A DNA stretch of 63,424 nt, counting the filler, from Collodictyon triciliatum (taxonomy: Eukaryota), in the NCBI GenBank assembly GCA_043381765.1. It is 6 parts of 6 records of this genome, joined end to end, with 100 filler letters (N's around TTAATTAATTAA, not from the genome) between each part and the next. Parts side by side here need not be neighbours in the genome. Positions count along the whole stretch, not along the records: positions 10,604 to 21,098 come from JBHJMP010002654.1; 5 more parts are not named here. One strand, written 5' to 3'. Shown here piece after piece: positions 3,101 through 63,424 of this stretch (the stretch's first letter is position 1; each line of letters opens with the position of its first letter). Made by a program: the position numbers and the translations under genes. The notes below the pieces were generated by a model that saw only the letters and a list, made by a program, of their open reading frames with translations, searched no databases and was not told where the DNA came from.

Positions 3101-4289
3101 TTTTCAGTACGAATATGGTTCGGACGGAAAGCCCATCACACTCGGTAAAGGAGGATATGGTAGTGTATACAAGGGGTTTTATAGAGGACACACTGAGATT
3201 GCAATCAAGAAGATAATTTTAAATGAAAAGTCTGCGTATGACCAAGTTCGAAAAGAAGTAGAAAACCTTCGGTCCGTGTTCTTTCCAATATTTGCATGTT
3301 CGCCTTGTTACCAATCAATTTGTATGTATATTTGTTTGTTTATAGATCACACGATCTGGTTTTTGTTTCATGAATAGAAAACATAGTCTTGCATTTTGAT
3401 TAGAAGTCTTCAATCAATAGGCGCTTACGTCATGATAATCTGTTGAGCTTTTTTGGACTGGTCAGAAGTGGTGAAGAAGTGTGGATAGTCACTGATTTTT
3501 GTGATGGAGGCGACTTGGCCACTTTCATAAAAAAGGGGGTGGCTGAGAAAACCTGGACATGGTCGCTGATGCAAGAATTCTCGACGCAAATACTGATAGG
3601 TTTGGATGTTATGCACTCCCGGCATAATATCGTTCACCAAGACTTGAAGCTTCAGAATGTGCTATTAAAGAAAGGGAAGTGTGTCATTGCAGACTTTGGG
3701 TTGTCGGTGAAGGACATGGATATTTCAAGACAATCGGGAACCTTCTTGTGAGTGATTGAGATTCATATCACAGTTATTTTCTCTTGCATTTTTCAATACT
3801 TGATGGAGGCAAACATCGTGACGCTTTGCTCAAACACATCCACATTTGCCTATTTAATCCCAAAAGCATGGATTCATTATAATTATAATTTATTGTTGTT
3901 TTATTTATTTACTTTCGCTGCAATTCCAATCTGTGTGTAGAAAACCTCTCCTGACGGTTGCGCCTTGCGGCCACCATCTCTGCATTAGGTACATGGGCCC
4001 AGAGGCATTGTGCGAAGAAAGCTACACCCCAACACCTGCTTTGGACATATTCTCCTTCGGCATGCTGCTTTGGCGCATGTGCTACATCAACTACCACCCG
4101 TATGAGACATACAAAGCAAATACACCCCAGGCGGTCAAGGATGTTTTGTCGAAGGGGGACCACCCACCTGTGGGGAGCGAAATACCCCAGGGAGTCGGCA
4201 AAATGATGAAGTCATGCTGGCTGTTGGAACCAAAGGAAAGGCCGACAGCAGAAGTGCTATTGAAGGACATCAGAGCTGCGTGGGTTTGA
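181..4289 (+). CDS. Multi-exon protein kinase (TKL-like, non-RD) with an N-terminal YbjN/T3SS-chaperone-like domain and four SH3/KOW-like repeats; 5' end probably missing
   Basis: GT-AG exons 181-628, 1016-1267, 1401-1640, 1916-2179, 2275-2889, 3061-3271, 3421-3747 and 3989-4289 join in frame. Kinase motifs: GKGGYGSVYKG, IAIK, HQDLKLQN, DFG, YMGPE, DIFSFG. Confidence 0.85.
685..780. repeat. (AAAAAAACGAC)n intronic minisatellite
   Basis: Direct reading; 11-nt unit. Confidence 0.9.
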
Positions 4290-5026
4290 TCCCGTCGCGG
4301 ATTTGCTCTCCTCTTCGCCGCGCGCGGTCAGAAACGAACACGGATGACTTGATCCAGCAGCACCCATAAAGGCACCCCAATCTAACCAACTTGCTCATCG
4401 CACAGGATTGTAAGGCTGGATTGTACAAAGTCGCCCTGAACATTTCCCAATCCTTTCCATGACTCCCACGAATACCACAACGGAGGTTCGAAAGAGGGCG
4501 AGGCACAGACTAAACCGGACGACGATTTTGTTGGTTGTTTGCGGTTTGCAGTTGGTTTCATAATTTCCAGATTCAATATCCTAGAAAGGATATAGATTGG
4601 GAGATTTGCTCACGCCTTGGGCTGCGTTTGAAATTTGTCAGCCCTGCTATCGACACCACGAATTCTCTTTCCCTTCCGCACATCCGCCCAGGAACCTCGC
4701 GCCCGGTAGATTCTCTCGAATCAAGCGTAAGTCCCTCACGTCCCCACCGATGCAGCGCTCGAAGTCGTCCGTGAGAGACGCATCCCCACTTCATTCTTTC
4801 ACCACACACTCTGAGTACTGAATGTGGCAAGGCACCCAGATGGGTGATACCCTACCACAAAAACCCCGAATAAGGTGTTCCTAAGCGTCCTATCTGCCCA
4901 ATCTTAATTTTTCCTGGTGAGGGATTCCGTGCGACTACAGGAGGAAGAGAACAACTCCCCGCCACAAGATCTCCTGATCTCTGACGTTTACATCTGTCAC
5001 ATAGCTTCAACCCACTCGAAGCGAAC

Positions 5027-5952
5027 ATGATTGTCCCCAAGAAGGATCGCCTGGCTGTCTACAGATACCTCCTCCAAGGTGAGCGCCAGATTATGTCGTT
5101 GCCGTAACAACCATTGCCTACACCGATCTCCCACCATCCCAAGCCTCCAGGGAGAGAGACCACCAGCCCGAGATAACTGTGGTCACGAGTCTTGATCGCG
5201 TGGTTGAGCTTGACTCACCCAGACCAGCCCAAAGCGAACTCACTCTTTTCCACGCCTTCAGCCCCCATCCTACCACATAACCCCCTGACCCTCTCCCACC
5301 GCCATACAGAGGGAGTGCTCGTTGCCCCCAAGGACTTCAACAAGCCCAAGCACGACATCCTGGACGTCCCCAACCTCTACGTCCTGAAGCTTCTCCAGTC
5401 CCTCAACTCGCGCGGCTACGTCAAGACGCAGTTCAGCTGGCAATGGTACTACTACTTCCTCACCGACGAGGGCCTCGTCTATCTGCGCCAGTTCCTCCGC
5501 ACCCCTGAGGATGTCATCCCCAACACCCACAAGAAGACCGAGCGCGCCGTCCCCTCCCACATCCGCGAGTCCCGCGACAGTGCGTCCCTCTCTCCCATTC
5601 CGCCACACCCCCGACCCACGCTGCCTGTTTCATCTCACGCAACACCTGCGCCGCAGGACGAAACATGCAGACGCTTACTCTCTCTCTTTCTCTCTCACAC
5701 TAACAAACACACACACACACACACACACACTCACTCACACTCACACTCACACTTTCAGGATATCCCCGCCGCCAGGACGGCGAAGGCAAGAACATCGCCC
5801 CAGGCTCCGACTTCAACCCTGAGTTCCGCGGCGCCGGCCGTGGCACCGGACCCCGCCCCTTCAACCGCGGCGGCGCAGAGTCCAGCGGAGCCGAACCCCG
5901 CCAGCCCCGCCCCTTCGGCCGCGGCCGCACTGACGCCCCGGCCTCCTCGTAA
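5027..5952 (+). CDS. RPS10: 40S ribosomal protein S10 (eS10), 3 exons
   Basis: Exons 5027-5078, 5310-5579 and 5759-5952 give MIVPKKDRLAVYRYLLQEGVLVAPKDF...VPNLYVLKLLQSLNSRGYVKTQFSWQWYYYFLTDEG...DFNPEFRG. Codons are strongly GC-ending. AATAAA lies at 5962-5967. Confidence 0.97.
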
Positions 5953-6108
5953 GCGCCACCCAATAAACGTGGCTTTGGTCCGCCCACCCCCACGCCACTC
6001 GGCCTGCGTCTGATGCTGAGGGAGTCTCCCACAACGCCGCGGCCTCTGTCCTCTGTGGTTTGGCTGCGCGGACAGGTGCAGTGTGACGCGCGCGAAAGAG
6101 TGCGCTGT

Positions 6109-6185
6109 GTGACGTCACGTCGGCTGTGTGGTAGGTCAAACTTGCGGTGTGGCGTGGCGAGAAAGGAGCGGCTTGTCCTGCCAAT
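6109..6185 (+). promoter_or_regulatory. Candidate promoter elements: CRE-like palindrome GTGACGTCAC and a CCAAT box
   Basis: GTGACGTCAC at 6109-6118 and CCAAT at 6181-6185, in a GC-rich stretch upstream of the ATG at 6491. Function is inferred only. Confidence 0.35.
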
Positions 6186-6490
6186 CAGAAGTTGCGTCCT
6201 GGCCTGCCTCCTCGTGCCCTTGTGAGCGGCGCGGTTCTCTCCTCGGACTTGGTTCCCTTCCCGCCGAAGTGCCGGGTGGCCGCGCTTGGGTTCGGGTGTG
6301 GAAAGAGCAGAGCGCGGCGTATTTTCGTCGTCCAACTTTTTATTTTATTAATTTTATTTTAATTTTTATTTTATCTTATTTTATTTTATTTTTAATTAAT
6401 TTATTCCTCGGCGTCGTCGTCGTTGTTGTTTTTCTGTTGGGAGATAGCCGCTGGTGGGCCGACTCCGCGCCGCTCTAGCCCTTCCTGCAG

Positions 6491-9400
6491 ATGTCGAGTG
6501 GCTCTCGGCTTGAATCCCTCCTCGCAAGACTAAGAAAGGCTCAGAGCGCCTCTGGACCGGAAAGAAATCGTATTCTTCGGGCAGAATACGACAGGCTGTG
6601 TGCGGCTGGTGAGTTGTTGCTGACAGCCACGCACTTTCTCTGTTTTTCTTTTTTTCTCTTTTCTGCTTTGCTTCTGTTTTTGAGTGGGTTTAGTGTCCCT
6701 TCTTCATTTTTGGCGGCAGAAACTTTGACGGAATATTTTCTTTTGTCCCTCTTCTTTTTGAACGCCCGAATACGTCTCGACTGCGCATGCGTCGTAGGTG
6801 CTGCGGATCGGCCTGCGTTTGAGTTGTTGGCGGTTGAATATGAGGCGAGCCCCTTCCTTTGGGAAAGCTACCAAAGCTCCCTTGTTTCTATGCGAAGTAA
6901 CGCTGTGTTCTCTGCGATATGGACGTTAGTCAGCTATCGTTGGGTAGAGTACATGCTCAATATCATATATTATATTCTTTTGACTGTGCAGCATAAGATT
7001 AGTCTGGCGGTGTATTCTTGCTTTTTATTTTATTTTATTTTATTTTAATGAATGTATTGGACTTTAAGAATTCATCTACCATTTCACACGTATTTATTTG
7101 TTGATGTATGTTGTATTTCAAATTATAAAAATTCAATACGCCCAGCGTAAACAATCATGGACATAAACATTTATTTTCCCCTTTATTGCATCGACATATA
7201 TACATGTATATTAAAAAAAAAACATCATAAGTGATTGTAATGTAATCTTTTCCACATCCTATATGATTATTTCTCTCTCTCTTTTTTTTTTCATGGCAGA
7301 TATTTGCTGACGTGGAGCACCAGACAGCAATTACTCTAAATATTTTCCTAAAAAGTTGCAATAGAATTTTCTGGTATTATTTCCTATTTCCTTATTCCTA
7401 TTTTCTTGCGTTTCTCTATTTTGGTGCCACAGATGACACTCTCCACATCTCTTTTTTTTTTTCATTACAAATAAAATAAACTCGAAAAAAAAAACGTACA
7501 AGCAACATCAATTGCATATTTTGATTAAATGATTACAATCTATCGATGCGAACTAAAACTTTGTGAACCTGACGCTGAAACAAATTATGGAAATTTAGGT
7601 CAGATTTATCGGGACAAAGTATCAATTTTCGAGAAATTTATAAGGTTTGTTCAACATGATACTTTTTTTTCTCTTCTCCTTTATTCGACTAAAAGTCTTT
7701 TAACGTGATTCTATTGCGGTTTTACGATATACTGGCGGTAATGCCTTGTCTGTTCATAAAATTTTCCCTCTCCACAAAACAAAGTACATCAGATTTAGCT
7801 TATGTGACAAAGGCTTTCACTTGGCGAAGTCTATCGCACCATACTATTCGATCGACCTGACGAGGCTTTTGTGTAAATACTACTTCCATTACGAATTTTT
7901 GGGAACTATGGAAGAACTGAAAGCAAGTTATCCAATTTTACACTCACCAACCTTTTCTCTACCAAGTCCATTATAGATTCATTCAATCCTTCTATATATA
8001 TGTACATTAGTTAACTCTGACTACATTATTGGTATTGGTATTCTAGTTTAATTATTATTTTTTTTTTTTTAATAACGGCATCGTTTCTAGGATTTTACCG
8101 CACAGCTGGATTTCGTGTTACACATAGTATCTGAAAAACTGTCACCAGAAGGGAACAAGGACGCGCCTTTAAAGAAGGTTTAGCACCGCAACGCACTACA
8201 CCACATTCCCAGATATTTATATCCAATCCGATCAATTATAATGCTATCAAATTAGTTTTGTTTGGTTTTCATTTACTTATTTACCTTCCTATTATGGTTT
8301 TTATCATTTATGTCTTCATTGTGAAAAGTTCAAAAGATCCGAAACATTATCTTCTCTATTTCACTCATAACTTTACATGCTGACTACTTAGTCGCGGGAT
8401 TATATCTATTCTACAGAACATAAAACTCATATTGTTCCAAGAACTTACTATTCACTCAACGGTCATGTAACAATAGAGCGCATCGGCCATTCTCCTGAGC
8501 ACTCTACAGGACAATAAAGACTATCTGCTGCAGACTGCAAAGGACCTCTACAGCGACGAGACTGCATTCTGGGAAGAAAGCGATGCCGACAGCAGTAACG
8601 AGGGTATCCATCTTCCCGCGAATGCGGGTGAAAGTAGGGAAGACGAATCGTCTAATCAACCATCCCAAAAAAATGGCACGGAGACCGAGCCCGCCCTGTT
8701 TGACGTATCTGCAGGGAGTGAGACACTGCCCCCTCCATTGGTGTCGTCTGCGCCAAATGCATCAAAATACGAGAAAATACAATCAGATCAAACAACCGCT
8801 TTATCGAGTACAGATTTAACAATTTCATCCGAGGGTTTGGAAAGAACGCACGAGCACGTCATTTACGCACCGGATTTGGTCGGCCTGGAGAGTGCTGCAG
8901 TGATATCCTTGATTCGAAACGAGGATACGATGGTTCAATACATGGATAAATTACTCTTCCTTAAAGGTAATCTCACTGCATTTATATATCGATTTGAGTG
9001 CTATGTGTTGAATGTACAGGAACATCGTTAGGTGTTTATACGAATTCAGTATTTGCATAAATCAAAAAAAAATCGGTTCACATGAAGGCTCTCTCTTTGA
9101 TTCAATACTCATGCGCCATTTCCTTCCACTCCATCGGTAGAGTACGAGCTTCAGAAGCACACATTAGTGAAGATACAAACATGCTTGCACCGATGTTCTC
9201 GACCAGGTCATACCTCTCTTTCCTTCTACCTGGCATTTTCGTTTTTTTTTTTTTCAGATAAGAAATTAATAAACAGATTTAAAGTATGCAAATAAAATGT
9301 ATCGAACAATGAACAAATATATCAGGCGGCCCTCTGTACCCAACACGACGCGTCCGCTCCAAAGCCCGAGAAGTTGCCGATTCTTTATTCCCGGTAAGCA

Positions 9401-10329
9401 AAGCAATATTTCAAATGATCAGCAAGATTGGTATACTTTGAGAAAGATTGAAGTATCATTCGTATATTTTCAATTGTATATACTATGAGGGGGTTTCAAG
9501 GCCACACGAAGGGTAATTTAAGTTGAAGAGTAAAATGTTCCATGGCTATCTCTATGTCTAATTCCTCTTCTTTTTTTTTTAAAAAGAAAGAAAACATCTT
9601 GCAAACACGTTGTATATCTATAAAGAGAGTTTAATATCACAATAATTGAGTATCATATCCCAGAGTCGGGGATGTATGTTGAATCGAAAAATAGTGAATA
9701 AAAGATTAGAGGAATGTCATCGCACGCGCAACTAAGCAAATATGATTTTTTTTTTTCAAAATAAATAACAAAAGAAAACCTCAAGTTATGTTAATTTTTT
9801 CTAGATTGGTCGAGTTCTTCGCAGAATAGTGCGGGTCTTATTTGCGCTCTGGCACCCATACTATACCGCATCATCACTGATTTATTGGACACATTACCGA
9901 GTTCGTGCTACATTGGACGGAATCTGGCATTACTTCTTCCGCTCCTGATTGTCGTATTCCAAACTTGCTCTTCATATTGTGCCGTCGTTGTAAACGCAAC
10001 ATCACATGCAGATATACCATTCTCGTTTGCCTTCTCATCCATAAAAAAAAAATAAAAAAAAATAATAATCCTAAAATGCTGAACACTTTGGCACTATAAC
10101 GGTCCATAGTCACACTTAAAAGAAATATTTAATACAAAAATTGGGTATCAAAATACTTTTACGCCTTTAAAGGGGGAAAATAAAGTTCACGAATACACAC
10201 CCTACTATTTTTCTTTCGGGTTCTTCATTCTTTTTCAACCGCAGTTTGTTTCGTGTGGGTTTCTATTGCAGGAAAGGTTGCGAGTGCTTTGAGAGAAGGA
10301 AAAATTGAGTCTGCAAAGGAAGGCACCTT

Positions 10330-10503: not shown

Positions 10504-10603
10504 NNNNNNNNNNNNNNNNNNNNNNNNNNNNNNNNNNNNNNNNNNNNTTAATTAATTAANNNNNNNNNNNNNNNNNNNNNNNNNNNNNNNNNNNNNNNNN
10601 NNN
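10504..10603. other. Artificial scaffold-joining spacer (N run, TTAATTAATTAA, N run)
   Basis: 100 nt with stops in all six frames; the same spacer occurs at 21099-21198, 31691-31790, 42278-42377 and 52860-52959. Confidence 0.97.
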
Positions 10604-10626
10604 TTTGTTTTTTTTTTTTTTTTTTT

Positions 10627-10701
10627 GGTTTTTGGTTTTTGGTTTTTGGTTTTTGGTTTTTGGTTTTTGGTTTTTGGTTTTTGGTTTTTGGTTTTTGGTT
10701 T
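10627..10701. repeat. (GGTTTTT)n simple repeat
   Basis: Direct reading. Confidence 0.9.
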
Positions 10702-10790
10702 CTTAACACAGTTCTTTCTTTCCCTTTACTTTCTATATCTTATTGTATGCTCCGCTACGTCAGTATTATTCAATAATATTAGAATCTCAC

Positions 10791-15037
<4,247 letters not shown>

Positions 15038-15941
15038 TGTGGGTAATGATGCACCTCTACGAGCTCCAAGTGTGGGTTATCGAGCAAAAACTTTGAAGGC
15101 ACTGGGTGGAGACGCAAAGTCTTTGGGACACACAGGAGTCGAATCTGGGTTGAGCAGACGCAGGATGGGTTTTTTTGGGGTGGCTGGGAGGGAAAATGAA
15201 TATAAGTACACTATTAAAAACAACTCGAATAGAATACAATGAGCGACTGGAAAGGGCAAGGTGGGTAAATCTCACATTCAGTCATCCTCAAGACAGGGAA
15301 TATTAAGAGTATCAGATGAATACCGTAAGTATAAAAAGAGAGAGAAAGAGAAAAAGCGACAGCCAGGTGGGCGTAAATAAAACTTTATATATAACTACGT
15401 AAGTAGGAGAAAGAGTAACCGAAGGCTCTTTAATATGCTCAACTGTTTCAGAAGAAACAACTAAAAATGGAGAAACAAGGAAATAACATCTTTCTTGGTC
15501 TCATGCCCCATTATTTTATATTATTTTATATTATTTTATATTATTTTATATTATTTTATATTATTTTATATTATTTTATATTATTTTATATTATTCTTTT
15601 CTTCCTCATGCACTCCTTTTCTCTTCGTTTTTGATATCGCCTTCCCCTCTGCGGTCGCGTGGATGGGCGACTTGTCGCTGGGAATGTCTCGCTGGCGCGC
15701 TGATTCTACTTTCTCTGATCCGCACTCAGGCCGCCGCACACCGCCACCGCGCACGCCGGTAACACATTTGAACAAGGTGGTTGTCTTGGCGTAACCGTTG
15801 ATATCAATTCCTACTTCTGGAATTATCGTGTTCAAGGGTCAAGTCGGTTTTGTCTCCTGCCCTGGCCACACGCGCAAACCCCCCAAGCAGCACCCGTCCG
15901 CCAGTTGCCACCGATTTAGAGACACAAACCCTAATTCTCTT

Positions 15942-15975
<34 letters not shown>

Positions 15976-16091
15976 CCCAATATTTAGGAGATTTTTAATT
16001 TGTGTCGCATCGCTAAATCAGTTGTATGCATCCAGGGTTTATTTGCAAATGATGTAAGTCATCATGAAGTACCTCACTTTTTATTATGATT

Positions 16092-16220
16092 ATACTAGAA
16101 GGGGTATACCAATCTTTCGGCTGGCAAACTTCGTCCGCTAGTATCCAAGATCTCACCAATTTTTTCACTATGGTCGTGTAGTGGTGGAGGCTGCCAGGAA
16201 AGACCCGACAGCCTGTTTTT
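16092..16220 (-). ncRNA. Candidate Fanzor omegaRNA scaffold
   Basis: Lies immediately 3' of the Fanzor ORF. Hairpins at 16188-16214 and 16166-16183, plus a multibranch stem at 16092-16144. The G-U pairs form only on the minus strand. Confidence 0.6.
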
Positions 16221-18192
16221 TTATAGGAAGGTGTTTTTCTTTTTTAAAGGATTAAAAAGAACTTTCTTGAGTATATTATGGGCGCTGTTAAAGTCCCTTG
16301 TCAAGAATATACTTTGTTTGCTTTCTGAGCGATGGCATTCTTTACATATGAAACTTCTATACACTTTTTTTTTATTTCCTTTCGGTTTTATATATTCCAG
16401 TTCCTTTTCGCAGTTGCAGCACATCTTGGAGGTTCTAAATTTATTTACGCTAACTATTTCAAAACGTTTGAATAGTATATTTCGTAATCCTCTTCCGATT
16501 ACTGCCATAAAATGGTTCATCGGACATTTTCTGCTCCAGTCTCCTTACGCCAGTACAACATCCTTGCCAAATGCCTTTTCGATTCAGTCCATAAACAATT
16601 CTTCACTTCCTTTTGTATTAACATACTGCCTTCATCTCATCTTCCGAAAAGTCACTTGTTCATAAAATCCGGAAAACTATCTGGTATCATGGTTTCATTG
16701 ATACATATTCTCGAAATTTTTCATAATCGACCGTGCATGAATTATATTAATCCAGTTCTGTCTCTAAATCGATTAAAGATACTGTTAATGTCTCAAATCA
16801 CTGATTCTCTTCAAAAGTCCTGAGACCAAAAGAAACAGGATTTTGTAAACCTGTTGCCATGCATATCCCTGAATAATTGTACTTTTCTTTCTCGCGTAAG
16901 ATTATTTTGTGATTTATAATGGATTTGCTATGATGTCTTCTTGGTGTGCCGCGTAACGTAATTTCTTACCTGTCTCATCCACCATGTAAACCAAATTAAA
17001 CTTACCTGCGTCCACTCCAACTATTCTTTTTTTGTCGCTAATAAAGATAACAGCTTTTCGGAAAGTTCATCTAAATAAATATATTCTTGGGGGTTTTCGA
17101 TTATATTTTGAATTTTGAATTTGAGATACCTTTCTTTTCAAACAATAATGACACTGCCAACCGTCTGTTTGTATCATGTATTAAATATTGTAGTCTCTTT
17201 GATGAAAGACCCTCTTCTTCATTTCAAAGAACTCATCCCATGGGGTCTCTATGCATCCTGATATATTCTTCAGTAATAATGTTTTTCCAGTTGATACTAA
17301 TAGACTTATCAAACATGCAGTGCTAGAGTAATATGACATGGTATATTGTTAGTTCTTATAGGAATTGATTGGAGCAGTTTGGTTCCAATGTCCTGAAAAA
17401 TGCGATTCATGTAAATTAGACATGGAATGTACTTATTTGGATTGACTTTGACGTCATATTCGATAGTTTTTACAATATCGCTGGGAATGATATGATGCAA
17501 GTGCGTTCTAGTCCATTATTTATATTGTTCCGTTATGTCGAGTTTCTTGAAGATAGCTTCTTTTTTAACTTTCGTAACTCTGCCTTTTTAATAGCTTCCG
17601 TCATATTCTCATCTTTAGGTACTGTTTGATTTATAAAGTGCAGTAACCTCTTTACAAAATGCTCCTTAATGTTATCATGATAAGCTGTTAACACTTGTTT
17701 CGCCAAGTACGGTAATAAATGATACAGTCCAACCAACGAAAAGCGTTCTTGTCGGGACGAAAGGAATCGAAAATCATTAAGATGAAAAAGTCATCATGTC
17801 ATTACTCATTTCTGGATGTTTTAATCTTGCGGGTCTATCTTGTGAAACTATTCTGACTGTCTTCAAAGCGTACAAAAAAAAACAAAAAAAAAACATTTCA
17901 TCGATTGTTGGGACTTTTGTGATTTCAATATGTAACATCTTGCAAACAGATAAGTGTTGGTAGCCAAATTATGACACAATAAAACCGTTTCGTTGATTTT
18001 GTCATAGTCATACGCATTCTTTACAATCGACTCTAAATATGTCTTCACATTTCAATAGCTAGGTTTTACAGACTTTAGATTCTCAGACTCAAGCCGTTTC
18101 CTTTCCTTCTTATGAAAGTCTTTGTTTTACTTTTTCCCATAGAAAACTACCGAGTCTTCAATTTTAATTAGTCAATTTAATAAATAAATAGA
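16095..18192 (-). mobile_element. Non-autonomous Fanzor1-carrying element with possible Helitron-type termini
   Basis: Contains only the Fanzor relic. Putative 3' end is hairpin-10 nt-CTAG|T at 16095; putative 5' end is A|TCTATTTATTTA at 18192. No TIR or TSD found. Boundaries are tentative. Confidence 0.45.
16221..18140 (-). pseudogene. Fanzor1 (eukaryotic TnpB-like RuvC nuclease), disrupted by stops and frameshifts
   Basis: Collinear fragments: VKTYLESIVKN...TYLFARCYIL; YLAKQVLTAYHDNIKEHFVKRLLHFIN; LLQSIPIRTNNIPCHITL; IQTDG; RuvC-I IVGVDAGKFNLVYMVD; FRKMR*RQY...VLA*GDWS; RuvC-II VNKFRTSKMCCNC; CKEC; RuvC-III TRDFNSAHNIL. About 640 codons in total. Confidence 0.9.
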
Positions 18193-18264
18193 TAAACAAC
18201 TGCAAAAAGTCAATTTATTTAAAATTAAGCCTCTACTGAGACTCTCAAAATGTGCGCATTGTGA

Positions 18265-18357
18265 CAAACAAACAAACAAACAAACAAACAAACAAACAAA
18301 CAAACAAACAAACAAACAAACAAACAAACAAACAAACAAACAAACAAACAAACAAAC
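18265..18357. repeat. (AAAC)n microsatellite
   Basis: Direct reading. Confidence 0.95.
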
Positions 18358-18984
18358 CTTGGAAATTAATTATTTCCTACTATTACTGCTTTACTTTAAA
18401 ATCCTTTTCGTTTATCTACCTTATATTCTTGTTACTTTTAATGCGTCGTTCTTATTCTTTTTTACTTGTCCTGAAGATACAGCGAGATTTTCTGCAAGTT
18501 TGGCCGGCAGCAAAGGACAAATAATTTCCAGGCACAAACGCAACGTTGAAACTGGCGCTTCTCCTTGGTAGCCTATAACCCATCTATGGAAAACCTTTTA
18601 CCATACTTTTCGGCCAACTGTCATTTCCCAGGTTCAGTCCTAAATCTGATGTGCGAGGTGGAGGCGATTCCTGAGAAAGCACGCGTGCCTCGCAGCATGT
18701 ATCCACATTAGGAAAATTCTAATTGTGGGGTTTTCATTCGAGAAAGAGCAACAAGCCCAAACGAAGCCGGTGGCCGACGGAGTCCTCTGTGGTGGCATTG
18801 GTCAAACAACCAGGGCATACGATCGAGAGCAACAAACTCGTCCTTCAGTGTTGTTCGTCACACTGGTCTGAGTATATGGTATCGCTGAGGGGGAAATTGG
18901 GCGGCTAACAGTGGTTACCTCTGGCCCTTTTTTTCTTTAATGCACATTCTCATTTATTTTTGCCTCGTATCCTTGGGTAAGCAT

Positions 18985-19236
18985 CTTTTCTCTTTTTCTC
19001 TTTTTCTCTTTTTCTTTTTTCTTTTTCTTTTTCTTTTTTCTTTTTCTTTTTTCTTTTTCTTTTTTCTTTTTCTTTTTTCTTTTTCTTTTTTCTTTTTTTC
19101 TTTTTCTTTTTTCTTTTTCTTTTTTCTTTTTCTTTTTTCTTTTTTCTTTTTTCTTCTTTCTTTTTTCTTCTTTCTTTTTTCTTCTTTCTTTTTTCTTCTT
19201 TCTTTTTTCTTTTTTCTTCTTTCTTTTTTCTTTTTT
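18985..19236. repeat. T/C-rich low-complexity tract
   Basis: Variants of (TTTTTC)n. Confidence 0.9.
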
Positions 19237-19357
19237 CAACAAAAATATATCATACCTTTCCAACACAACCCTAAATTCTTGGGTGAAACAAAATATGGTA
19301 TTGATGGGGGAGGACTAATGTGTCTGATGATATAGTCGCGACAACTTCTAATAACAG

Positions 19358-21037
19358 AGAGGATTGGGTAGGATGGACGCTCAATGGCTCAGCCGGGTTG
19401 CTGGATCACACGCCGATCGATACTTGTTGGACCAACACCTAATCCCACTTTGGTCCGAGAGCGGAGCCAATGTACTATCTCTTTGGTCGGTGCTTTTTGT
19501 TCAGAGCTTTTTCACCGCCATCTTTGCCCTGATGCCAATCACTCTGTTTTACGTCCCAGCCCTGACGATGCCTGCAGATGAGCTTAACTTGGTAGTTGAC
19601 CTCATCTATGTGGTTCTTTCAAACGCTATTATGCATACCGCCTTTGCCGCTCTTGCCTGCTTGATTCTTCGTCATCTGTTTGGCTCTCGCATTGCTGCTC
19701 TAGTTGCTTGCAGAATTTACATATATGTATTTCTAGCTGCAGTCTCTTTGTCTTTACCGATTATTTTCGATAAGCCGATTCGTTTGTGGATTCAGCGTTT
19801 TCTTATTATGAGCTACTTTTTTGGCTTCGGTTATATTCACAAATTTGCAGATAGTCTATTACCATATGCAGAATCTGACTTACATCGTAGGCTTCTCGTT
19901 GATGGTACTGCAATTGTTTTGTGTAAAACTTTAGTGGCATGTGTGATATTTTACAATGGTGTTCTAATCGTGTATCCCATTTTTGTAGAGTCAGATTTCT
20001 ATACCCAGTTGTTTATACGGCTAGTTTTTATGCCATTGATTTTCTTCTTTGTGGATTATATACAAATATACTCATTGATTAGTCTGTCGCCTGGACATAT
20101 GACTAAGAGAATGGACATTGTTTCATTGGTGAATTCATATGCTCGACTTCTTGGTAGATTAATGATTGCCACTGTCAACAAGGATAACTATGAACGTAAT
20201 TTGATTGTCATGTGCACCGGTGTTTTACTGATAGATATTTTCAACCGAATTACATATAACATTCGATATCATACTGCTTCTCGACTTCATTTTTTTTGGA
20301 AAAGTACAGATGTAACTGTTGGGTCCATCTATTCTTTTTTAAAAGAAAAGGTCATGTATCCTGTTCACAAAATAACGCATCAATATACTGAAGAACAACA
20401 AAAATACCAGTCGTCCCGAAAGAGAGGCAAAGACAATCCCCACACAGTTAGAGTAGAGCAATCACACAGTACCTCGAGCTCTCCCCATGTCCACGTAACT
20501 GAGGTTGTGGAACACGACCAACAGATTCTGCCTGCTGAAACGGCTGCTTTACAAATATCCGTGGCTGAGGTTGATGATAATCAAAGTCGTTCTGTTAATG
20601 TTCGTATTCATCATACTATATCTTATACTGACAATGCGGAAGGTGATGATAAAGCTCCTTTTGAGCTACCCAGCCCCTTAAAGGAAATGCGTGTCAAGCA
20701 GATCATCGATAATGTGGCCGTTGAGATTCGTCTCTGCATTCTGATGTCTTTCTTTGTGTTCTATATCGGTCGTTTGTTTCCTGCCAATGAGCTCCATTCT
20801 CCGTCCAACCTTGTTCAATGTTTTTATCTGCTCGGAATTCAAGTCATATTCGAATTTATTACAGACGCCGTATCTTTCTATGTAGAAATTTACTTTTATA
20901 AGCTTCCTTTGGACATATCTTACGATGATTTCAAGGGAGTCAATCGACTTGTCTTTGCATTTTCCTTGTATGCTATCATCGGCTTTCAGTCTTACATATC
21001 TTTCATAGTTAATTTTCATTATCATGTTGAAGACTAA
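19358..21037 (+). CDS. Uncharacterised multipass membrane protein (about 8-10 TM) on one large exon; small upstream exons near 18650-18880 are possible
   Basis: Uninterrupted ORF of about 557 aa with many hydrophobic helices and a polar loop. Acceptor AG at 19356-19357; first ATG at 19373. Confidence 0.8.
   Translation, partial: RGLGRMDAQWLSRVAGSHADRYLLDQHLIPLWSESGANVLSLWSVLFVQSFFTAIFALMPITLFYVPALTMPADELNLVVDLIYVVLSNAIMHTAFAALACLILRHLFGSRIAALVACRIYIYVFLAAVSLSLPIIFDKPIRLWIQRFLIMSYFFGFGYIHKFADSLLPYAESDLHRRLLVDGTAIVLCKTLVACVIFYNGVLIVYPIFVESDFYTQLFIRLVFMPLIFFFVDYIQIYSLISLSPGHMTKRMDIVSLVNSYARLLGRLMIATVNKDNYERNLIVMCTGVLLIDIFNRITYNIRYHTASRLHFFWKSTDVTVGSIYSFLKEKVMYPVHKITHQYTEEQQKYQSSRKRGKDNPHTVRVEQSHSTSSSPHVHVTEVVEHDQQILPAETAALQISVAEVDDNQSRSVNVRIHHTISYTDNAEGDDKAPFELPSPLKEMRVKQIIDNVAVEIRLCILMSFFVFYIGRLFPANELHSPSNLVQCFYLLGIQVIFEFITDAVSFYVEIYFYKLPLDISYDDFKGVNRLVFAFSLYAIIGFQSYISFIVNFHYHVED

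Positions 21038-21038
<1 letters not shown>

Positions 21039-21098
<60 letters not shown>
21039..21098. repeat. (CA)n microsatellite at scaffold end
   Basis: Direct reading. Confidence 0.95.
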
Positions 21099-21198
21099 NN
21101 NNNNNNNNNNNNNNNNNNNNNNNNNNNNNNNNNNNNNNNNNNTTAATTAATTAANNNNNNNNNNNNNNNNNNNNNNNNNNNNNNNNNNNNNNNNNNNN

Positions 21199-21349: not shown

Positions 21350-30108
<8,759 letters not shown>

Positions 30109-31554: not shown

Positions 31555-31645
31555 TTTGTTTGTTTGTTTGTTTGTTTGTTTGTTTGTTTGTTTGTTTGTT
31601 TGTTTGTTTGTTTGTTTGTTTGTTTGTTTGTTTGTTTGTTTGTTT
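31555..31645. repeat. (TTTG)n microsatellite
   Basis: Direct reading. Confidence 0.95.
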
Positions 31646-31790
31646 TTGTACGCTTTAAAGACAGTCGGAGGAGTTTCTTAACATAGACACNNNNNNNNNN
31701 NNNNNNNNNNNNNNNNNNNNNNNNNNNNNNNNNNTTAATTAATTAANNNNNNNNNNNNNNNNNNNNNNNNNNNNNNNNNNNNNNNNNNNN

Positions 31791-42156: not shown

Positions 42157-42502
42157 GAGGAATAAAAAGAAGGATTGAGCTCAAGCTATCGATCCACGGA
42201 TAGCAAGATAATTGTGAATAAAATGTTCAGTATTAGTTGCTCTGATTCATTTCTCTTTTCTTTTTTCTTTTTCTTTTNNNNNNNNNNNNNNNNNNNNNNN
42301 NNNNNNNNNNNNNNNNNNNNNTTAATTAATTAANNNNNNNNNNNNNNNNNNNNNNNNNNNNNNNNNNNNNNNNNNNNAAAAACAACAAAAAAAACAACAA
42401 AAAAAACAACAAAAAAAACAACAAAAAAAACAACAAAAAACAACAAAAAACAACAAAAAAACCTCCCAGAAACCGCCCGAACTTCGATTCAAGACCCCGA
42501 AG

Positions 42503-50400
<7,898 letters not shown>

Positions 50401-52859: not shown

Positions 52860-53052
52860 NNNNNNNNNNNNNNNNNNNNNNNNNNNNNNNNNNNNNNNNN
52901 NNNTTAATTAATTAANNNNNNNNNNNNNNNNNNNNNNNNNNNNNNNNNNNNNNNNNNNNTAAAACAAGAAAACATGTAACGAAATCAATGAATGGACGAA
53001 TTAAACCTAAAAGAGTGACAAAGGGACCATATGAGTTACAAATGGAATATTC

Positions 53053-60183: not shown

Positions 60184-61123
60184 CAATAAATAAATAACCG
60201 TATCATACCCCAAGAAATCATAATTATAACCCTAATAATCACATTTCCATTATGAACTTATACACATGAAAGGAAAAATGAACATTTTGAAAATATGATA
60301 CTAAGTAGGGGTTTCGCACGGGTGTGGCCGTAGTGGTCACTTGCAAAATCCCACAAACATGGCAGCCAGAAGCTGGATGTAGGCGGTATCTACCCGCCAT
60401 AGTGCCTGACAACCGCACCAGACATATTCAAACGTTTGAATGTTTGAATATTGAAATGTTGAAAGTGGGCTTATAGAAGTGTTTCATGGTATGCGCGGAA
60501 CACAAAGCAGAGTATTTCGAGGCGATATCAGGATTGCGTGCATCTCGCGCGGCCATTTGCTGACTCAGCTCGTGGACTGTTTTCCTGCAAGGTGGAATAT
60601 ATTCCCTCCCTATTCACAGAGCTATTTCCGATCATATATCCAAGTGCTTTGTATCTTGCTTTGTTGTTGAAGTAAATATAACTACAACACTATTGATTGT
60701 GCACGCTGAAAGTAAATGGCCAGAGGCGAGTAAATATTATTGTTTTTTTTTTCCTGCGTTGTGAACCTCCATCTTTTTCTTATCAATCAGATCAATCATC
60801 TAGCCAGCGATAGGCGTGTTCGCCGCTTCCTTTCGAAACTTTACTATCCACTATTGCACTTGAACTACACAAATGGCACCTCTTTATTTATTACTTTCCT
60901 CTGTCTCGTTTCGTCTGCCGTGATAATTGCGCAAACTCCGACTGCAATTTTGTTTTTGTCCTATCAGCCGTTTACAGATTAAATCAAACTTATTCCTATT
61001 CCTATTCCCACAATCACCTCGATCAAGTCTAGGATAGAGATGGTTTGAAGAGGCTTTATCTATCAAAAAAAGGCATCGTATGCGCCATAATAACAATGAA
61101 TTATATGTCAGAAAGCAGGGACC

Positions 61124-62281
61124 ATGTCAGTGAAGGATACCACGGGATTGCTGACAAAGGAGTCTGAAATGTCTCCCATCATACGGGCATCATCTTCAGC
61201 GATGATAGAAGAAATTGCTGTGGAACATGCAGAAGGACGACGCGAGGTTGGTATAAGTGCGCTGTTTGGTATCACAGCTATTCATGACGTAGCCCAGACC
61301 TTTCGTGTGGATATCATGTTCTATTTTCACTGGCCCGAAAGCAAAACTGAAGCTAAGATTAGGGAGATTGAGAACGGCTCGTCGCTTGGAGATCGAGAGT
61401 CGACGGCAAGTTCCAAGCGAGTGAAAATTGAGGGATATCAAAAACTCAAGGTTAAACCCAATTGGGTGCCTCACATATGTTACTACTCGTTTGAATCTTT
61501 TGAACTGAGCGATGAAGTATACTTCTTCAATGAAACGACTGGTATGTACTACGCAGCATTGAACTACATTATCACGTTCTTGGAGCCATTTGAGCTCCAT
61601 CGATTTCCATTTGACCGACAAACCATGAGGATTGCCTTCTGCTCTACAAATTCAGCTATTGTCCCGTATGACCCGAAACACGGCTACCCTCCAGGATTTA
61701 TGGATGATTGCATCATATACGGAATATACAAGTATGACAACTGGATTATTGACAACATCGAATCTGAAATTGAAACAGATGAGCACGATGTTAGTTTCTA
61801 CATCAGGATTTTTGCTACAAGGAGAGCCGACTTTTACATATACAACATATGTGCTGTGGTCTTTTTAATCGTTTTATGCACAGCTACCGTCAATGCGATT
61901 GATGTCCATGAATTTTCGGATAGAATGTCCGTTACAATAACACTTCTGCTAACGGCTGTTGCATTCAAATTTGTCACGAATACGTACATTCCCCAAGTCT
62001 CGTATCTTACACTTTTAGACAAATATACTATGTTTAGTTTTTTGATGTTGAGTGCTGTTGTACTAGAAAATTACATCATGACATTTATAAGTCACCAAAA
62101 GGCTGAATACATCGACAATGTATTCACTATAGCTTTTGTTGGTGTTTGGGTGGCGCTGCATGTGATTATCAGCATAGGAAACCGCTTTAATGTTTTTCAC
62201 CAGTCATGGACCAAGACACTTGCAATGGACAACAAACAAGTAACTAGAATCAAAAAGAAAACCATCGACAAGGTCGGATAG
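61124..62281 (+). CDS. Cys-less (Pro-loop) pentameric ligand-gated ion channel, intronless
   Basis: WVPHI; FELHRFPFDRQ Pro-loop with no flanking Cys pair; pre-M1 Arg (TRR); M2 DRMSVTITLLLTAVAF; M2-M3 IPQVSYLTLLDKY; four TM helices with a short M3-M4 loop. Confidence 0.92.
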   Translation: MSVKDTTGLLTKESEMSPIIRASSSAMIEEIAVEHAEGRREVGISALFGITAIHDVAQTFRVDIMFYFHWPESKTEAKIREIENGSSLGDRESTASSKRVKIEGYQKLKVKPNWVPHICYYSFESFELSDEVYFFNETTGMYYAALNYIITFLEPFELHRFPFDRQTMRIAFCSTNSAIVPYDPKHGYPPGFMDDCIIYGIYKYDNWIIDNIESEIETDEHDVSFYIRIFATRRADFYIYNICAVVFLIVLCTATVNAIDVHEFSDRMSVTITLLLTAVAFKFVTNTYIPQVSYLTLLDKYTMFSFLMLSAVVLENYIMTFISHQKAEYIDNVFTIAFVGVWVALHVIISIGNRFNVFHQSWTKTLAMDNKQVTRIKKKTIDKVG

Positions 62282-63424
62282 GACTTTCTTCAAATGAATC
62301 TTTGCATAAGCATGCGCAACTTGGGGCTCCGACAACTGATTTTAATGTCCATCATCTTGACTTCCCTATTCTAAGCTCTCGACTTTGAGGACAATTGCTT
62401 CCAAATGATTAAAACTCCCTTTGCCGCACGATAAATAAATTCTTATAAAATAACATCCTTCGAATCCAATATTTAAATATATTGTCCAAAAAAAAAGCTT
62501 TAATATTTTATTGTACTCTATAATCAGACCCTTAATAACCTTTTGATGAATGCCAGCAAAATTAACCACTGGAAGCTTGTATTCGAACATACAGACACAT
62601 TTCACAGTTTTCATAAGGTATGTTCCACCGTGCCTGTAACAGTTCAGGAGTGTTTGGCGAGGGGATCGGAGTTTTACTTTCACAGAGTTGTGCCTTGAAG
62701 TTCGGGCATATGCGGTGTATTGGGTGCCACATCCCACGCTGTCAACCCCCTTTCGAATGCATCACCATACCTGTCCGCCGTCTCATCGTGAGCGAGGTAC
62801 ATGTAGTACTAGGCGTGGATGGATTCTGAGATATTCATGATAGAATACCCCCTAAAGTGATACCAATCGCGCCTGTAAATACTGAATATTCATTAATTTT
62901 CCCACCATTAGACTGAAGATCATATATTCTATGTAGATTTGTATCATAAAGGAAAGAATACACATCTTGAGTTTTAGTTAGACATTTAGTCTGCATGTGG
63001 CCCATTGTACTTTATCGTCGGTCTTATATCAATATCATGGATTCACTCAAGACGGTTGCGGCTGTTGGCCCAATCCAGGCGATATTTGAGCCTCTGCAAC
63101 AGCTGCGCCCAGATGCGAAAACGTTATGGGCAGTGACGCGAGGCCATTTGCTATGGACTATGTGGATAGCAGGCATATACTCACGCAAAGTAAGACCCAA
63201 CAACCAGCCACCCATTCCTGATAATAGACTGGATGACATCATACAAATCTCTTTCCTCAATAGCTTTCTTCGCCACCTGCACGTTCTCTACTATTCGGAC
63301 CCTGTGAGATGAGAAATGTGGAAAGAGGCTGAGAAGGATATTCAACCTCACCTTGTCTCCCTCATGCAAGCACAAGACCCAGGCTACAGGCCAAAGCGCA
63401 GGATGCAATTCCTGATTACCGACT

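Follow-up and report, generated by a model that had tools for sequence, protein, structure and literature searches.

Remains of a Fanzor1 Gene in Collodictyon triciliatum and Their Relatives in Environmental and Giant-Virus Sequences

Introduction

The stretch of DNA considered here, hereafter the window, comprises 63,424 nucleotides from the genome assembly of the eukaryote Collodictyon triciliatum (GCA_043381765.1), and its minus strand holds the remains of a gene for Fanzor1, an RNA-guided nuclease. We regard these remains, referred to as the relic, with high confidence as a neutrally decaying pseudogene. The relic extends from 16168 to 18113 and covers about 649 codon positions, i.e., the full length of the gene, as delimited by tblastn and by frameshift-aware alignments to two intact homologues, P0157 and P0003. 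All coordinates are positions in the window, with the higher number on the 5′ side of features on the minus strand.

Fanzor1 proteins are eukaryotic, transposon-borne homologues of TnpB and Cas12. Judging from published work on SpuFz1, the Fanzor1 of Spizellomyces punctatus, and on other Fanzors, the intact ancestor of the relic would have been guided by an omega-RNA specified by the 3′ end of its element, and would have cleaved the double-stranded DNA that this guide matches with a RuvC site made up of an Asp in RuvC-I, a relocated Glu in RuvC-II, and an Asp in RuvC-III. The relic has lost that activity, with its start codon gone, the frame shifted and stopped at many places, and the catalytic Glu changed to Lys. 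It is now a solo remnant, the transposase, the inverted repeats, and any recognizable guide RNA being no longer there, and it belongs to a small subfamily in which a few or more further copies are decayed as well, while an environmental relative of 648 amino acids (aa), P0157, is intact.

Homology to Fanzor1 Proteins

A three-frame translation of 18300–16000 reveals pieces of one protein that are scattered over the three minus-strand frames and interrupted by stops. The 107-aa fragment from the C-terminal part (16544–16224), when compared with 1.84 billion representative proteins, gave 215 matches at E<=1e-3, including 44 at E<=1e-10, and many of the matched proteins are 620–650 aa long. In the reverse direction, intact homologues used as tblastn queries on the window recovered the locus, P0157 with E=5.4e-127 (four pieces joined) and 1.7e-41, P0003 (634 aa) with E=1.3e-84 in one search and 9.4e-83 in another, and P0010 with E=2.4e-57; the relic is the sole significant locus in the window, all matches elsewhere having E>=0.012. 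A family alignment, A1, was built from 30 full-length homologues and has 611 positions, and the residue numbers given below follow P0003. Its hidden Markov model (HMM) matches six fragments that contain no stops and follow each other in collinear order along the minus strand, with E=1.5e-33 to 3.2e-5, at profile positions 17–67, 104–183, 194–258, 259–306, 358–389, and 490–583. An earlier, sequence-only reading of the window had joined minus-strand fragments into a TnpB/Fanzor-type protein of about 640 codons and had asked for a frameshift-aware, tblastn, or HMM comparison with the family; the joined protein and intact Fanzor1 homologues prove to be collinear from end to end, the P0157 alignment and the six HMM fragments both speaking for it.

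The assignment to Fanzor1, as opposed to Fanzor2 or TnpB, is based on the intact family. Against PDB sequences, the A1 profile matches the Fanzor1 of Parasitella parasitica, PpFz1 (9cf0), with E=2e-90, SpuFz1 (8gkh) with E=2.2e-90 over profile positions 5–599 of 611, and the Fanzor1 of Guillardia theta, GtFz1 (9cer), with E=3.3e-78. Beyond these three proteins, it matched at E<=0.01 only two LaTranC chains (~2e-3). Similarly, P0157 alone gave three matches at E<=0.01, all of them Fanzor1, with 2.7e-24 for 9CF0 and 2.1e-28 for 9CER, and no Fanzor2 or TnpB chain was matched at E<=0.01 among the PDB sequences by either the profile or P0157.

A long alignable N-terminal half is a Fanzor1 signature. 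Here, the alignment is as good over this half as over the RuvC half, which upholds the proposal, made earlier from the length of this region, that the gene is Fanzor1-like: the homology covers the full length, including the REC-containing N-terminal half, and is to Fanzor1 and not to Fanzor2 or TnpB. Fanzor2 and TnpB, such as mimivirus ApmFz2 (PDB 9B0L) and ISDra2 TnpB, share with the relic family the RuvC and zinc-ribbon core and the order D...[TS][TS]xx-C4...RD, whereas the long N-terminal half of the family aligns only with Fanzor1. PpFz1 and GtFz1 (PDB 9CF0 and 9CER), described in Xu et al. 2024 (PMC11423790), are distant homologues of the family, and the profile matches PpFz1 in two pieces because this protein has an extra stretch of ~110 residues (chain 985–1096).

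Motifs and Catalytic Residues

Bao and Jurka (2013, PMC3627910) give the superfamily motif as D-X(125,275)-[TS]-[TS]-X-X-[C4 zinc finger]-X(5,50)-RD, and this order can be followed through the relic, from the Asp at 17012–17010 to TS at 16433–16428, ~193 codon positions further on, then KM, the zinc finger CCNC...CKEC, 12 residues, and RD at 16298–16293. All the motifs lie on the minus strand. The RuvC-I motif reads GVDAG (17004–17018), with the Asp codon GAC at 17012–17010 kept and the Pro of DPG changed to Ala (GCA, 17009–17007). At 16536–16547, a premature TAA (16547–16545) stands where at least 90% of the family has Tyr, and is followed by GDW, with its Gly at 16544–16542. The motif VNKFRTSK (16425–16448) includes the [TS][TS] pair that precedes the zinc finger, and has Lys (AAA, 16442–16440) in place of the invariant alternative RuvC-II Glu. 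The C4 zinc finger (16335–16421) keeps all four Cys, with CCNC at 16421–16410 and CKEC at 16346–16335, and the RD of RuvC-III (16293–16298) is also kept, within RDFNSA (16298–16281), its Asp codon GAC being at 16295–16293. Every motif coordinate that the sequence-only reading had listed, i.e., those of GVDAG, VNKFRTSK, CCNC, CKEC, and RDFNSA together with the named codons, is exact.

Twelve columns of the A1 alignment are invariant, D372, E530, and D581 among them, and four Cys are near-invariant; D372, P373, G374, and E530 are each the same in 30 of 30 members. By profile alignment, D372, E530, and D581 correspond to chain residues 777, 935, and 1000 of 8gkh_P, which are D383, E541, and D606 of SpuFz1 once the fusion offset of 394 in the chain numbering, checked on the DPN triplet, is subtracted. 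According to Saito et al. (2023, PMC10432273), E541, D383, N385, and D606 of SpuFz1 coordinate two Mg ions. The Asp, the Glu position, the zinc finger, and the RD thus follow each other in the relic in the same layout as in SpuFz1, and the collinearity with Fanzor1 on which the earlier interpretation had been staked is present.

Regarding RuvC-II, Jiang et al. (2023, PMC10530073) describe Fanzors as having Pro or Gly in the canonical slot and an alternative Glu downstream, and state that mutating the alternative Glu abolishes cleavage by ApmFz2. Bao and Jurka (PMC3627910) describe an extra G and an extra E, G500 and E536, as extremely conserved in Fanzor1. In the relic, as in SpuFz1, a Gly occupies the canonical slot (G496, the G of GDWS at 16544–16542), so that of the conserved pair the Gly is kept and the Glu is replaced by Lys. 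The change to Lys at 16442–16440 had been noticed before, and the refinement to be made is that it affects the alternative RuvC-II Glu and not the canonical slot. Overall, the relic retains 10 of the 12 invariant columns, the exceptions being P373, now Ala, and E530, now Lys. Of the 25 near-invariant columns it retains 22; E399 has become His, Y495 a stop, and R601 Lys. The Glu is kept in the sibling copies P0001 (VDEFRPSK) and P0164 (VNEFRTSK) and in P0157, hence the Lys is private to the relic. This replacement marks the inactivation of the gene and not a different family.

Lesions and Decay of the Gene

The lesions were mapped with a protein-to-DNA alignment allowing frameshifts that was written for this analysis. 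Homology, lesions, and residue changes alike are results of the present comparisons. Against P0157, 384 of 633 aligned codons are identical (60.7%), with residues 1–642 of the query covering 18111–16177 of the window. The alignment requires 10 frameshifts, near 17915, 17788, 17582, 17322, 17158, 17105, 17025, 16939, 16677, and 16252, and crosses nine internal stops, namely TGA at 18054, 16800, 16689, 16634, and 16586 and TAA at 17518, 17183, 16749, and 16547. Against P0003, 253 of 608 codons are identical, with nine frameshifts and nine internal stops, including TAG at 16679. Conserved blocks are interrupted by the stops, as in VLA-stop-GDWS and KMR-stop-RQY. These lesions, together with the missing homologous start codon and the Glu to Lys change, agree with the previous verdict that the copy is dead: the relic has neither the uninterrupted open reading frame (ORF) nor the intact D-E-D triad of a functional nuclease.

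The frameshifts are of one or two bases, and an intron-sized insertion is found at none of them. Compared with P0003, a giant-virus-type relative, the relic has an insertion of 33 codons at 16777–16875 (minus strand), present and alignable in P0157. An intron was considered for this stretch and rejected: P0157 encodes it, and therefore it is native to the subfamily. Defined relative to P0003-type relatives, this insertion after RuvC-I is also listed among the differences from SpuFz1.

Errors of sequencing or assembly are an unlikely source of the lesions, since only 4 of the 10 frameshift sites have a homopolymer of at least five bases within 12 bases, and since the two ORFs that flank the relic on its contig (448 and 560 codons) read through without interruption under the standard code. 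Repeat-induced point mutation (RIP) was likewise examined as a source of the stops and rejected, with TpA/ApT at 0.79, (CpA+TpG)/(ApC+GpT) at 1.2, and CpG observed/expected at 0.94, indices that are similar in the flanks and in the whole window. As the dinucleotide indices carry neither a RIP nor a CpG-decay signature, the decay appears to be of the ordinary, neutral kind.

The limits of the relic differ from the span 16221–18140 first proposed. The ATG at 18140–18138 and the TAA at 16223–16221 that bound this span are exactly where they were said to be. Nevertheless, the ATG is not the start of the gene, as it sits in another frame than the homology, which begins at 18111–18114 for P0157 and P0003, where an ATG at the homologous position is absent. 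At the other end, past the frameshift near 16252, the homology runs beyond the TAA at 16223 as far as 16177, and the next in-frame stop is TAG at 16170–16168. The relic is therefore placed at ~18113–16168, and its 3′ end lies ~55 bases further than had been proposed.

Other Copies and Close Relatives

A second, tiny fragment of the same family is found on the plus strand at 31625–31690, where 64 nt are 84% identical to the minus strand at 17895–17833 (E=5e-13 and 2e-14). It translates as FLYALKTVGGVS, compared with FLYALKTVGIVS in P0157. The fragment is preceded by a (TTTG)n repeat, which seems to have grown from a T-rich run inside the ORF, and the contig, the third piece of the window, ends at 31690 within the fragment, so that the assembly broke off inside what is a second copy. 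No second full copy was found in the window. Two further tblastn matches, at 46072–46242 (E=0.022 and 0.71) and 63084–63284 (E=0.088 and 0.31), look like chance, and the family HMM gives nothing there at E<=10.

Outside the window, two predicted proteins from very short NCBI contigs are close to the relic. P0001, of 136 aa on a contig of 582 bases, is 73% identical to the C-terminal fragment and is itself frameshifted, because part of it reads in the wrong frame, and P0164, a partial protein of 82 aa on a contig of 530 bases, is 76% identical. All the close sibling copies seen, i.e., 31625–31690, P0001, and P0164, are thus partial or broken, and the rebuilding of the family by consensus suggested earlier is not feasible from them. 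It is also unnecessary, because P0157 is intact. This protein, encoded by an ENA contig of 2610 bases, is the closest intact relative of the relic (61% identical), and is grouped with fragments P0156 and P0162, the identity over the C-terminus being 68%. No relative of P0157 was found in viral contigs, and among JGI metagenome contigs there was only one, distant and 21% identical. A sequencing-run index gave four runs, each holding 0.06–0.08 of the sampled words, probably simple repeats, with no RNA run among them.

Giant-Virus Relatives and Phylogeny

Proteins of the P0003 type, ~42% identical to the relic, are encoded by giant-virus contigs of 57–254 kb in IMG/VR. Five viral loci (L001–L005) were obtained among 42 pattern matches, and L002–L004 have essentially the same sequence. 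A quickly built maximum-likelihood tree with 37 rows, unrooted and with most rows lacking a taxon label, pairs the relic with P0157 with a support of 100 in the approximate likelihood ratio test (SH-aLRT), and this pair is sister (SH-aLRT 90) to a clade with L001, L003, and P0003. The end branch of the relic, 0.41, is twice that of P0157, 0.20.

In L001 (4631–7952) and L003 (4625–7951), inverted repeats of ~33 nt bound a mobile unit of 3.3 kb. Upstream of the Fanzor and opposite to it, the unit has a gene for a DDE_3 transposase (E=1.3e-13), in which a helix-turn-helix scores below threshold; it further includes a 69-aa ORF without a known family and, on the strand opposite to the transposase, an intact Fanzor1 of 634 aa. 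The right repeat begins only ~15 bases past the Fanzor stop. In its make-up, the unit agrees with the mariner-borne Fanzor1 elements of viruses reported by Bao and Jurka (2013, PMC3627910), of which PGv-1 of Phaeocystis globosa virus, in the Tc1/mariner elements of large DNA viruses, is an example. L005 has two ORFs of 626 aa arranged tail to tail, at 5998–7878 (plus strand) and 7995–9875 (minus strand), the first of which is a Fanzor1; from its equal size, the second may be an inverted second copy.

Element Ends, Guide RNA, and Genomic Context

The hallmarks of a Tc1/mariner-type transposon, namely inverted repeats at its termini and a duplicated target site, to which a DDE transposase may be added, are not seen at the relic. 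No convincing inverted repeat brackets it; the best tblastn match in the window to the L001-type transposase has E=0.13 and lies on another contig, and the inverted repeat of L001 was not found in the window either. The relic is in this respect unlike the viral Tc1/mariner Fanzor1 elements, having neither a transposase remnant nor a matching inverted repeat. It also differs from the SpuFz1 loci, which have 30-nt inverted repeats and a 3′ guide RNA, neither being recognizable here. SpuFz1 (PDB 8GKH) otherwise resembles the relic family in its near full-length alignment and in the layout of D, E, D, zinc finger, and RD, the relic itself being set apart as a pseudogene with Lys at the position equivalent to E541.

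Neither the whole window, at gathering scores, nor the locus, at E<=1, matched any Rfam family, and a tRNA scan found none. The 3′ region of 271 nt folds with z=-1.86, which is marginal, as 10 of 200 shuffles fold as well. Folding also yields a hairpin of 11 bp (nine Watson–Crick and two G–U pairs, with a loop of 5 nt) at 16188–16214 on the minus strand, inside the C-terminal tail KKQAVG, and this tail is conserved in P0157, P0156, and P0162. As far as the predicted fold can suggest, the hairpin is a possible leftover of a guide-RNA scaffold or of an element-end structure.

The surroundings of the relic have to be read with the composition of the window in mind. The latter consists of six contigs of 10503, 10495, 10492, 10487, 10482, and 10465 bases, in descending order, from a fragmented assembly, joined by artificial linkers (N44-TTAATTAATTAA-N44) at 10504–10603, 21099–21198, 31691–31790, 42278–42377, and 52860–52959, and most contig ends lie in microsatellites. 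Because of these artificial joins, a gene neighborhood that crosses a linker is not real, and the true context of the relic is limited to the second piece, 10604–21098. The chaining of unrelated contigs affects any reading of gene neighborhood in the window.

Weighing the Explanations

Several points weigh against a decaying, transposon-borne Fanzor1. Only 1 of 10 relic fragments matched a TnpB-type family in Pfam, and did so exactly at the cutoff (PF07282, Cas12f1-like_TNB, over the zinc-finger region, E=8.3e-6, 26.3 bits). The 107-aa C-terminal fragment alone found nothing significant in the PDB, its best scores being 0.042 for an unrelated epimerase, 0.07 for PpFz1, and 0.26 for the mimivirus TnpB-like L79. 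As the fragments by themselves are weak against curated libraries, the relic is assigned to Fanzor1 through a chain of intact homologues. Finally, the term transposon-borne is carried over from relatives, because element ends, a target-site duplication, and a guide RNA were not found. Concerning Pfam, the library is insensitive here for the whole family, given that one of seven and none of three intact members reached the PF07282 cutoff.

A different origin can be envisaged in which the relic is part of an integrated fragment of a giant virus, the Fanzor having come with viral DNA and not with a resident cellular transposon. The sister clade of the tree does hold Fanzors on giant-virus contigs of 57–254 kb (L001–L004), at an SH-aLRT of 90 that is below the 95 marked by a star, L005, from another clade, is viral as well, and viruses have been proposed by Bao and Jurka (PMC3627910) as spreaders of Fanzors. 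Nonetheless, we hold a viral insertion to be very improbable. At E<=1e-3, the window is matched by none of the remaining ORFs, of 80 aa or longer, that the five viral loci contain, and none of the 20 long ORFs scanned in the window belongs to a viral hallmark family. Only two of these 20 are on the contig of the relic, where they flank it and have no Pfam family, while 5 of the 18 on other contigs show eukaryotic families (eS10, leucine-rich repeat, Cys-loop-channel-like). Moreover, the viral copies are only ~42% identical to the relic, and P0157, its closest relative at 61%, was not found in the viral collection. The opposite doubt, that the gene is alive, with introns, an unusual genetic code, or sequencing errors behind what look like breaks, is harder still to credit. 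It can draw on the gain of introns by eukaryotic Fanzor genes mentioned by Jiang et al. (PMC10530073), on the 4 of 10 frameshift sites near homopolymers, and on the fragmented assembly. Against it, conserved blocks are broken by TGA and TAA and, along one alignment path, by TAG as well; the adjoining ORFs are normal under the standard code; the frameshifts of one or two bases come without intron-sized insertions, the sole insertion, of 33 codons, being coding and common to P0157; and both the catalytic Glu and the Pro of DPG are substituted. A Fanzor1 gene in neutral decay remains by far the most probable source of the relic.

Other Features of the Window

On another contig than the relic, the plus-strand region 5177–6010 holds an exon of the ribosomal protein eS10 (eS10 match at 5303–5560), whose best matches among solved ribosomes are fungal, with 102–112 bits for yeasts compared with ~90 for plants and 83 for mammals. 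As the one taxonomic clue in the sequence itself, this exon lends no backing to the earlier label of a protist and would make a fungal source no less likely; Fanzor1 is on record from either group. The stretch around it is GC-rich, with 56% in 4001–6000 compared with ~38% overall, and then passes into a (CA)n-type repeat that reads HTHTHT. At 61100–62278 (plus strand), an ORF of 393 aa has sub-threshold matches to Cys-loop neurotransmitter-gated channels, with E=3.8e-5 for the membrane part and E=2.2e-3 for the ligand-binding part. The third contig contains two internal runs of N, of 518 bases (23265–23782) and 418 bases (24491–24908), which are either scaffold gaps or withheld stretches, and because of them the ORF lists of this contig include spurious long ORFs.

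Significance

The relic is real but ordinary, in that both eukaryotes and giant viruses were known before to carry Fanzor1. Thousands of Fanzor1 genes and decayed copies of them are on record from fungi, protists, animals, and giant viruses, with 3655 unique putative nucleases reported in Jiang et al. (PMC10530073). A broader scenario may be sketched, tentatively and as one we think rather unlikely to hold in all its parts: the relic and P0157 would form an uncharacterized Fanzor1 subfamily, distinguished by the 33-residue insertion after RuvC-I, that entered the host lineage by exchange with giant viruses carrying DDE-transposase-borne copies; those of its members that are intact in environmental data would work as RNA-guided nucleases, with the KKQAVG hairpin as the start of their guide RNA.

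On its own, the relic matters little, and its value is that of a clean, fully mapped example of the decay of a Fanzor1 gene. Beyond this, it points to the intact 648-aa P0157 as a member of a subfamily with a distinctive insertion, and it ties this subfamily to the transposase-associated copies borne by giant viruses.

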